DNA of 16,898 nucleotides, taken from an uncultured cyanobacterium (GTDB taxonomy: Bacteria > Cyanobacteriota > Cyanobacteriia > Cyanobacteriales > Microcystaceae). Below are positions 11,096-12,966 of the stretch, one piece after another (the stretch's first letter is position 1; every line of letters starts with the position of its first letter). The stretch is from positions 1 to 16,898 of the forward strand of contig CAWEDJ010000058.1 in assembly GCA_963807635.1 (NCBI GenBank), given 5' to 3'. Under the pieces are notes generated by a model, which was not told the DNA's origin, ran no database searches, and saw only the letters and a list, made by a program, of their open reading frames with translations. The translations under genes and the position numbers were made by a program.

Positions 11096-11206
11096 GGGGG
11101 TTTCTCAACATTTCTTAATATTCTTTCTCATATTGTAACGAGGGAATGGGGGAATTGTATTAATGCTCAGAAATTCGGCGTATTCAGATTTTGGGTAAAA
11201 GTCGCG

Positions 11207-11239
11207 ATCGCCTTTCATCAAGTTACAAAACTCGCGATC
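11207..11239. repeat. 33-bp direct repeat, left copy (HIP1-bounded)
   Basis: ATCGCCTTTCATCAAGTTACAAAACTCGCGATC; 32/33 identical to 11849-11881. It begins inside intact HIP1 11204-11211 and ends in broken GCGATCaa. Confidence 0.95.
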
Positions 11240-11264
11240 AAACTCTATTACTCAATACCTTAAT

Positions 11265-11507
11265 CTATGCCAATTCTAAATGTGTAACTGGAATTTTTTC
11301 CGTTTTTTCAGGGGTTTTTAGTCCAGTTGCTACAGCATGAACAGTATGCAATATTTCAGCAGAATAATAACGATTGCCGCAGTTATTACACACACCAATC
11401 GTCACGTCTTCAAGAATGACAAAACCATCTCTATGTTTGAAGACTTCTCGTTTAATAAGGCGAGGTTGAACCGTTCCTTCACAGTATTCGCATTGATAGC
11501 CGTACAT
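11265..11507 (-). CDS. YgiT-type zinc-finger protein (MqsA N-domain-like antitoxin), 80 aa
   Basis: MYGYQCEYCEG...VILEDVTIGVCNNCGNRYYSAE has two CxxC pairs. ATG 11507 lies 4 nt after the upstream gene's stop; no HTH domain follows. Confidence 0.85.
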   Translation of the reverse strand: MYGYQCEYCEGTVQPRLIKREVFKHRDGFVILEDVTIGVCNNCGNRYYSAEILHTVHAVATGLKTPEKTEKIPVTHLELA

Positions 11508-11511
11508 GGAG

Positions 11512-11807
11512 TTAGCCCTCAAGTTTGGTGATTTCATAAACTGTAATAATCAAATAACGTCCGCTAGTGGCGAAACGCCCAACTACCCCGACGGGAGTTT
11601 GTAGATTAACTGCGGTTCCTGCAACAATGTATTTTGATCCCCTGGGATCATCTTTTTCAATCCGAACAACACGACCGTTTAAAATCGCTGTTTCTACATC
11701 GATGATGGTTAGATAGTCTTCGCCATTTCTTCCATTGCATGGGCTGACATATCGTATTGTTGCAATCGGATTTTTTGACGGATACGATCAATGTCGTTGT
11801 TTGACAC
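11512..11807 (-). CDS. DUF4258-family putative RNase toxin; -1 frame break at ~11722
   Basis: Not in the ORF track. From GTG 11807: MSNNDIDRIRQKIRLQQYDMSAHAMEEM[A]EDYLTIIDVETAILNGRVVRIEKDDPRGSKYIVAG...RYLIITVYEITKLEG*. The SxHA.E.M, D+E.AI.NG and IITVY motifs and the pairing with a YgiT finger are typical of DUF4258. Confidence 0.85.
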
Positions 11808-11813
11808 GAGCTA

Positions 11814-11863
11814 AATTTTGTTACGATTCGGTGATCATAGCAAAATTAATCGCCTTTCATCAA
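11814..11863 (-). promoter_or_regulatory. Putative toxin-antitoxin promoter with overlapping inverted repeat
   Basis: Minus strand TTGATG (11863-11858)-N18-TATGAT (11839-11834) with extended TG. Inverted repeat AATTTTGTTACGAT (11814-11827) / ATCATAGCAAAATT (11834-11847), 12/14. Confidence 0.6.
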
Positions 11864-11881
11864 ATTACAAAACTCGCGATC
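11849..11881. repeat. 33-bp direct repeat, right copy (HIP1-bounded)
   Basis: ATCGCCTTTCATCAAATTACAAAACTCGCGATC. It begins in broken HIP1 (ttaATCGC) and ends inside intact HIP1 11876-11883. Confidence 0.95.
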
Positions 11882-11985
11882 GCGTTGTTGATATTTAAAG
11901 ATGAATAGGGGATCTAGGTCAGTGAAAAGAAATTTTAAGTAATAGAATTAAGATTGTCTAAATTTCACTGTTATCTTCTTGCAAT

Positions 11986-12033
11986 ATGCCGTTAAGTTGG
12001 AATGAAATTAAAAGTCGGGCGATCGCCTTTTAA
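11986..12033 (+). pseudogene. 5' remnant (15 codons) of an MmeI-family type IIL restriction-modification gene
   Basis: ATG CCG TTA AGT TGG AAT GAA ATT AAA AGT CGG GCG ATC GCC TTT TAA = MPLSWNEIKSRAIAF*. This matches the MmeI N terminus as I recall it (MALSWNEIRRKAIEF) at 10/15 and ends 4 nt after HIP1 12019-12026. Confidence 0.75.
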
Positions 12034-12966
12034 CAATTAGAAGAAGAAAGGTTGGCGATCGCCTGGGAAATAAAAGGTAAAATTTGAGGATTACTCGCGT
12101 TTTCCTGCCCTTCCGTAAAAACCGTTAATAAATAGGGTTGTTTGTTGGGAATTTCAATATAGGCCGCATCATGGCGTACCTTACTTGTCCAGCCAGCCTT
12201 TGACCACAATTGAGCATTTTTGGGTAAAACTTCCCCTAAAAAGCCTGTAACCTGATTTTCTTCTCCTGCTTCAGGTTTCGCTACGTTTAAAGACCGTTTT
12301 AATAATTTCATCATTTGTTGCGATCGCACCGAAGAAACCGCCACACCGCCAACAATACTATGCAATAAACGAGCAACCGCATCGGTAGTTAACATATTGC
12401 GATTATCCAGCATTTTTCCCACAAAAGCCCGTTCTCGACCATGGGGCCTTCATTCCAGGGTTTTTGATTCACATTAATTCCGTTTAATTCTTCCCACCCT
12501 AAATTTTGAAAATAACGATTGACTAAATTGCGTTGATGTTTCCAGGTTTCAAAGGGCGCGTCGGGTAATTCGGGGCCGCTGGTTGTTCCCGTCAAAGTAT
12601 CCACAATTAAACTCGTGGCATCATTACTCGAATCCACGATCATATCGGTAATCGCCCGTTCTAATTCGGCAAACTTTCGATCATGTTACCTTCTAGCCAT
12701 TCCGCGATCGCAACGAGATAAAACAATTTGACCAAACTAGCAGGATAAATGCGTTCAAAACTGCGATAACTAGACCCCCGCACTGAATGCTTCCAAAATT
12801 CTTCTGCTGAGATAGCCCCGCCCGTATTGACAATTACTGGCTCATCATAAACGATCCAAGTGAGAGCAATTTGATCCCGTTTTAAACTAGGAAATTCCTG
12901 AAAAGCTGAATCTAAAATCGTCTGGACAGTTTGGTTGAGAGCTTGATCGGGACGGAAAAAAGTCAT
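12030..12966 (-). CDS. Class A beta-lactamase-like serine hydrolase; two -1 frame breaks (~12443, ~12671)
   Basis: YPASLVKLFY (SxxK), DSSNDAT (SxN) and WSKAGWTS (KxG). The three track ORFs join as ...IES[L]AELERAITDMIVDSSND... and ...WNEGP[Y]GRERAFVGKML... Confidence 0.88.

Follow-up and report, generated by a model that had tools for sequence, protein, structure and literature searches.

HIP1 sites as likely joints for swapping a predicted toxin-antitoxin cassette and other small accessory genes in Microcystaceae cyanobacteria

The window, a 16,898-nucleotide stretch of a contig from an uncultured cyanobacterium of the Microcystaceae, carries two small genes that belong to toxin and antitoxin families and overlap by 26 nt, the arrangement of a type II toxin-antitoxin (TA) module (Table 1). 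The predicted antitoxin scores 34.1 bits against TIGR03831 (cut-off, 20.2), and the toxicity of its DUF4258 partner is predicted from the family match. As far as the available text of PMC11980606 goes, DUF4258 is a BECR-fold toxin family without experimental description, with DUF4258-MqsA fusions on record that a YgiT-finger partner fits; the family table there gives the order antitoxin-toxin, whereas at this locus DUF4258 comes first and its partner falls below the cut-off of the MqsA model. The DUF4258 frame is one base short near 11721 in both contigs of the source genome that hold it (source genome, G000), and since it is intact in the sister species G004 (98 aa), the extra base is present in six sequencing runs, and similar frameshifts affect the neighbouring beta-lactamase-like gene, this loss is probably an assembly error. 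That neighbour, a class A beta-lactamase-like gene (12030-12966), occupies three frames here and a single 312-aa frame in G004, and its splits and those of several other genes in the window are likely assembly errors as well. Long open frames with the same start as the nearby MmeI-type methyltransferase stub are found in genomes G014 and G001, and loose ends from several runs continue the stub; a contig of run X8 runs past 12024 and comes back to 11985, which suggests a further insert, a few kb long, flanked by repeats of ~40 bp with the HIP1 core at their end. A domain search finds HEAT/PBS-lyase repeats in the gene that the initial annotation called nblB.

Table 1 Features of the cassette and its borders, in window coordinates
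Feature	Position	Strand	Remarks
Left outer HIP1	11204..11211	none	Intact in the window; alternative alleles depart from the window here
Left copy of the 33-bp direct repeat	11207..11239	+	HIP1 part, 22-nt spacer 'A', HIP1 part
Left inner HIP1-like site	11234..11241	none	Reads GCGATCAA; edge common to copies at other loci
YgiT-type zinc-finger gene, predicted antitoxin, 90 aa	11265..11537	-	TIGR03831
DUF4258 (PF14076) gene, predicted BECR-fold toxin	11512..11807	-	Pfam match
Promoter-like site	11834..11863	-	TTGATG, 18 nt, TG-n-TATGAT; 9/12; -35 in the right spacer, -10 inside the cassette
Right inner HIP1-like site	11846..11853	none	Reads TTAATCGC; cassette edge in G014
Right copy of the 33-bp repeat	11849..11881	+	A diverged copy accompanies the cassette in G002
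Right outer HIP1	11876..11883	none	Intact in the window
MmeI-type methyltransferase gene stub, 15 codons	11986..12030	+	Broken 4 nt beyond the HIP1 at 12019-12026
HIP1	12055..12062	none	Similarity to congeners G001, G002, G003 and G005 starts at or within 7 nt of this site, on the beta-lactamase side

The initial annotation placed the TA pair between two nearly identical repeats, and the repeat listing of the window confirms this, with 32 of 33 positions identical at a distance of 642 bp. Its description of the outer HIP1 sites as intact and the inner ones as broken holds in the window and is not conserved: the left outer site reads GCGATCAC in G004 and in runs X9, X13 and X14, the left inner site varies to GCGATCGA in G004 and GTGATCGC in G014, and the right inner site is TTGATCGC in G014. 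When up to nine mismatches are allowed, the 33-mer recurs in the source genome (4.03 Mb in 107 contigs, 93.7% complete, 4758 HIP1 sites) only on contig C59, which overlaps the window at 98.4% identity and is not an independent copy, and at two places with eight mismatches; a sequence this rare in 4.03 Mb is not repeated by chance. The segment 11197-11211 also matches the region of the right outer HIP1 at 14 of 15 positions, 672 bp away, and this is the span absent from the cassette-free allele described below. A staggered cut between bases 3 and 4 of HIP1, considered as the origin of the repeat ends, fits those in the window and fails in G004, where the match is one base longer, and at other loci. 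Promoter-like sites number three in the scan versus 2.7 in shuffled sequences, so that the one at the right border is a weak candidate not above background.

Among 41 genomes compared, only G004 is collinear at the locus; it is filled and has both repeat copies. No orthologous empty site occurs in these 41 genomes, of which G001, G002 and G005 have the two flanking genes on different contigs, and the HIP1-N22-HIP1 empty allele that the initial annotation anticipated in relatives was thus not found there. The cassette itself lies at different loci in other relatives, with its edges at HIP1. In G014 the pair is found elsewhere at 90% identity, the similarity extending from the left inner HIP1 to 8 nt beyond its right counterpart; the spacers on the outside differ and the 33-bp repeat is absent. 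Run X8 has the G014-type flank ahead of 11234. In G002 the pair lies at yet another locus (87% identity); its left side has a HIP1, and a diverged spacer copy is found on the right only. More distant copies (71-79%) in G006, G013, G033 and G044 match within the genes only. The spacer of the window also precedes other genes, in G001 (two clear cases and one variant), on G000:C40 and on one metagenome contig; pattern scans for the 33-mer gave one metagenome match and two genome matches, none of which is an empty allele of this locus. The earlier claim of a compact mobile cassette is therefore upheld by G014 and G002, where the cassette lies elsewhere and HIP1-like sites form its edges. A local tandem duplication or an assembly artefact without mobility would be in keeping with the many single-base frameshifts and overlapping contig ends of this assembly, but G004 has both repeat copies, a single contig of run X1 contains the whole stretch, and the cassette occupies unrelated loci in G014 and G002, which largely refutes such a reading and makes it highly improbable.

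Sequencing runs offer a second view of the locus. Seven of 24 listed runs were compared, all as contigs, which drop rare variants; RNA runs, whose shares were small, were left aside. Run X12 has a 130-nt contig (depth 3.4, with a filled contig at 7.3) in which position 11177 is followed by 19 different letters and then by 11869, so that a single HIP1 is left and most of the 22-nt spacer is lacking. This sequence would be expected if the 672 bp separating the outer sites had been lost or had never been there, and it may reflect a later deletion; it was placed at 82% likeness, and joints at low likeness may derive from other organisms. A loose end in run X13 has nearly the same letters as this joint and does not indicate its allele of origin. 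In run X9 a minority contig (depth 16.9 versus 139) departs from the window 4 nt past the left outer HIP1 into other sequence, so that three alleles pivot on this site: filled, cassette-free (X12) and with another insert (X9). The single-HIP1 contig of X12 is weak evidence against the paired-HIP1 empty site proposed by the initial annotation, since contigs drop rare variants; paired-HIP1 empty sites do occur at two other loci, described below. The 642-bp circle, or a joint skipping these 642 bp, that it had also proposed is absent from the contigs of the seven runs, in which rare variants are lost.

We find that small genes between HIP1-touching direct repeats recur in the source genome, as had been suspected. 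Non-coding repeat pairs number 315, of which 101 are short and complex; 30 of the 101 touch an exact HIP1 where at most 11.1 are expected, a test in which HIP1 bases were left unscored and in which the 30 include this locus twice as well as overlapping array pairs. Ten of 20 HIP1-touching repeat loci inspected have Pfam toxin, antitoxin or PIN matches. For a controlled comparison, 70 of 74 matches from six Pfam searches were retained as TA genes (the four dropped were a duplicate, a match in a long frame and two at the start of a contig; 69 could be scored), and 324 genes of 1546 eligible served as controls, not matched for non-coding flank. Seventeen of the 69 TA genes lie between repeats, versus 8 of the 324 controls, and the repeats touch an exact HIP1 for 8 TA genes versus one control. 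For the other nine bracketed TA matches the repeats have no contact with an exact HIP1, and parts of paralogous genes account for some of the 17. Family-wide, repeats bracket 14 of 30 BrnT loci and none of 30 glutaredoxin loci, the latter having more non-coding flank; ten of these 14 BrnT repeats have a HIP1 within one mismatch and only two an exact one, and four g11 loci look like one ancestral event.

Other relocated modules show similar edges to a varying degree. A YefM-YoeB module (G000:C46 versus G004:C44) and a YafQ module (G000:C73 versus G002:C94) have edges at HIP1 on both sides, without the repeats seen in G000. A ParDE module (G000:C23 versus G003:C785) starts at HIP1 and brings its right spacer along, as the window cassette does in G002. 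One end only is at HIP1 in the YafQ copies of G005 and G001 and in the C43 module in G004, and neither end is in the BrnTA copy of G001:C41. A PIN-like pair on G004:C174 gave no Pfam match at 1e-5 and was left out of the confirmed TA genes. Between loci L187 (G001:C112) and L167 (G000:C93), the position of sequence resembling the BrnT end of the cassette differs: relative to the neighbouring TA pair it is upstream in G001 and downstream in G000. This hints that the order of cassettes has been shuffled, at a point where the G001 contig starts. Small coiled-coil genes that begin with MATTIETDLKE or similar form tandem arrays on G000:C47, C75, C31 and C67, often between HIP1-touching repeats. A second dispersed class in several contigs of the source genome, REP-like palindromic repeats, is without HIP1; one pair of these flanks a gene that, by its look, we take to be a RAYT transposase.

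The comparison of G000 with 2.05 Mb of G004 (~4.6 Mb; 1.28 Mb aligned, 94.2%) permits an account of gains and losses. From 346 collinear gaps, 84 clean indels of at least 100 bp were obtained, of which 9 touch HIP1 versus 3.6 expected (P 0.012). The excess lies in the indels with a flank overlap of at least 15 bp, where HIP1 is touched by 6 of 8 and 0.57 are expected; for the remaining 76 indels the count is 3 and the expectation 3.06. Among the six, one is a repeat within a gene, and in another (16 bp) half of the overlap is HIP1 itself. A BrnT/BrnA pair in G004:C23 stands opposite a HIP1-N20-HIP1 empty site at G000:C99:22880, and a 4.2-kb block at G000:C40:43146 with BrnT and PemK matches stands opposite HIP1-N13-HIP1 in G004:C19. 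The 28 non-syntenic segments have 56 ends, of which 16 are no more than 8 nt from a HIP1 (expected at most 7.3%); HIP1 is present at both ends in only 3 of the 28. The joints of natural gains and losses thus fall at HIP1 above chance. A further 5.4-kb block, at G004:C156:12887-18285 (L096), lies between two HIP1 sites where G000:C39 has one HIP1; it holds a gene for a 1400-aa protein, protease-like by eye at its N-terminus, and two small genes.

These same counts bear on the strongest rival explanation, in which HIP1 is merely the commonest GC-rich 8-bp match, so that slippage or illegitimate recombination lands there passively and TA genes simply sit in variable regions. HIP1 is the most frequent non-coding 8-mer in the source genome (1134 copies), and its share of identical non-coding 8-mer pairs, 4.9% overall, reaches 25% among those with at least 4 G+C and 60% among those with at least 6 G+C; the 16 of 56 break ends at HIP1 (29%) agree with the 25% figure. 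The variable length of the repeats (8 to ~100 bp), the position of HIP1 at their start, middle or end, and the TA pairs found between repeats without HIP1 are all as a passive process would have them, and by its title Robinson 1997 (via PMC4390886) reports similar excision rates in E. coli. Passive microhomology leaves unexplained, however, why non-coding HIP1 pairs are in excess at spacings of 18-30 nt (90 pairs, 6.9 per nt of spacing versus 0.44 at 31-48), and why a conserved 45-bp unit lies at cassette borders across two genera. Also at odds with it is the finding of preprint 10.1101/2024.09.10.611283 that integration in PCC 7002 rose as much as 7-fold when a single homologous HIP1 was added, and more when it was methylated. 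On balance we regard the passive reading as possible but doubtful.

The spacers of paired HIP1 sites are mostly locus-specific. BLAST and profile searches find one family of ~45 bp spread over the genus and G014. The profile has 53 matches versus 3 for a reversed control, the 53 being 11 in G000, 6 in G004 stretches and 36 in loci mostly picked for the 45-bp unit; its copies are found beside TA pairs, XisHI and a flavodoxin gene. When 89 genomes were scanned with a strict pattern for the unit, G000 alone matched, the pattern being too tight. The spacer of the window was considered as a shortened member of this family, but its match is not significant: 20 of 59 spacers reach the same score (P 0.06 by shuffling). 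Nor do paired-HIP1 units form an extended hairpin, an idea rejected because their arms pair no better than swapped arms (2.25 versus 2.62), and 29 long aligned units yield zero consensus pairs for a hairpin. Non-coding HIP1-pair spacers in G000 are polar, a T-rich arm standing opposite a C-rich one; their C fractions correlate at -0.49, compared with ~0 beside a single HIP1. The flavodoxin gene (L267:758-1270, G004:C67) has a copy of the 45-bp paired-HIP1 unit on either side; its N-terminus resembles proteobacterial FldA, and it is possibly a captured foreign gene.

Such units raise the question of a dedicated system, in which paired-HIP1 units would be att sites for a putative recombinase and circles of cassette plus unit would integrate at a resident unit, with shuffling of the integron or dif kind. 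This is how the filled and empty pairs would arise in which the empty allele has one paired-HIP1 unit, and it suits both the BrnTA locus of G000:C93, where the genes lie between two copies of a 54-bp repeat with a central HIP1 that is a single-copy site in G004, G001 and G005, and the three-copy arrays at C43, C47 and C98, as well as the 45-bp unit that brackets TA pairs and the flavodoxin gene. Against it, the repeats are mostly locus-specific and variable in length, the window spacer does not match the 45-bp unit significantly, the 29 aligned units have no consensus hairpin, and the contigs of the seven runs contain no circle joint. The searches for an enzyme point the same way. No integrase or transposase is recognisable by eye in the ORF list of the window, in agreement with the initial annotation; its further proposal of an att-like use of HIP1 finds no counterpart, the tyrosine-recombinase and integron-integrase searches having returned no dedicated att-type recombinase. 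In G000 (93.7% complete) the integron integrase model TIGR02249 reaches 48.3 bits at best (cut-off, 265), and the six tyrosine-recombinase matches are on C28 and C93, four of them in a row at G000:C28:108082-111726, which we take to be RIT-like. The attC core motif is RYYYAAC ... GTTRRRY, and the sole pair of cores per strand in 11101-11990 falls inside genes rather than at the cassette border or the unit. The 25 longest of the 178 inverted repeats listed include none at the cassette ends, and the inner ends of different cassettes share, by eye, no motif beyond HIP1. We consider a dedicated recombinase unlikely.

Comparison with known systems places the locus among cassette systems and HIP1 recombination events alike. 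Integron arrays and CALINs, like the loci described here, hold small accessory and TA genes arrayed between repeated sites; unlike them, this locus is without IntI, attC cores or a conserved hairpin, and its cassettes appear to carry parts of promoters. The system functions like an integrase-free cassette system and is not an integron. TA cargo is frequent in Acinetobacter dif modules, whose pdif sites are fixed 28-bp XerC/XerD sites (XerC-6-XerD) in alternating orientation, whereas the sites here are direct, variable in length and HIP1-based; the comparison with the dif consensus was made by eye. As in the available descriptions of those modules (pdif/XerCD; PMC13141974, PMC6449649), accessory modules of one or two genes are shuffled between short repeated sites. 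SDR5 (Elhai 2008), as excerpted in PMC4390886 and PMC13756078, is also a short repeat tied to HIP1; in heterocystous strains its 21 nt split a single HIP1 between bases 3 and 4, whereas the present spacers lie between two HIP1 sites and border gene cassettes. The 352-bp smtB deletion is a HIP1-flanked illegitimate excision (Gupta 1993; Robinson 1997; both as cited in PMC13756078 and PMC4390886), in which, as here, a segment bounded by two HIP1 sites is gained or lost, HIP1 forms the joint and no dedicated recombinase is known; it concerns single laboratory events at an 8-bp repeat, whereas here whole TA modules recur at different natural loci, often with repeats of 25-60 bp around HIP1. In the HIP1 site-specific plasmid recombination of Synechococcus PCC 7002 (Akiyama 1998, as cited in PMC4390886 and PMC9239245) two DNAs are likewise joined at HIP1; that is, by these citations, a plasmid fusion with no paired-HIP1 unit or TA cargo mentioned, whereas here chromosomal gene cassettes are involved. 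The available text of PMC5861425 concerns kilobase-scale periodicity.

Taken with these precedents, we find it likely that HIP1 serves as a joint for swapping small accessory genes in these bacteria. For the window itself, we propose that the predicted DUF4258/YgiT module was moved by host recombination joining HIP1 to HIP1, with addiction preserving TA modules, a proposal to which we assign an even chance of being right. Host recombination would cut and join modules at HIP1, the cassette having no integrase of its own, and we infer an order of events in which two exchanges at HIP1 sites 30 bp apart copied the intervening spacer and left the 33-bp repeat as a by-product. At this locus the spacer probably came with the cassette, because G002 has it on the right side and the cassette-free allele of X12 is without most of it; elsewhere the target appears to have supplied the stretch that was duplicated. 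Addiction, in which loss of the antitoxin frees the toxin, would then retain TA modules between otherwise deletable repeats, and would account for the TA enrichment between repeats, since repeat-flanked DNA is readily deleted and addiction would select against its loss. We favour host recombination because there is no integron integrase, the tyrosine recombinases lie elsewhere, attC cores are absent, and repeat length and HIP1 position vary; counting against it are the small share of clean indels at HIP1, the few non-syntenic segments with HIP1 at both ends, the module copies that end away from HIP1, the repeat-bracketed TA genes that touch no exact HIP1, and the conserved, dispersed 45-bp unit, which exceeds what bare HIP1 joining requires.

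The function of HIP1 has been open for 30 years, and prior evidence for a role in recombination consists of a few laboratory events. Literature searches returned no account of HIP1-bounded TA cassettes; to the recombination already known, this analysis adds natural filled and empty alleles, relocated modules and controls that tie HIP1 to the edges of mobile TA cassettes. It offers a route by which transposase-free TA modules may spread through cyanobacterial genomes, and names substrates (a 612-672 bp module and the 45-bp unit) with which a HIP1-specific enzyme could be told from passive microhomology. In cyanobacterial engineering it could help to guide the integration of markers. A bolder reading, which we offer as a speculation with the weight of probability against it, is that bloom-forming cyanobacteria of the family have an integrase-free cassette system, in which a host enzyme reading HIP1, perhaps methylated HIP1, would capture, array and reshuffle TA and accessory genes at paired-HIP1 units, the 45-bp repeat among them. 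If true, such a system would give HIP1 a concrete job, as a cyanobacterial counterpart of attC or pdif sites.
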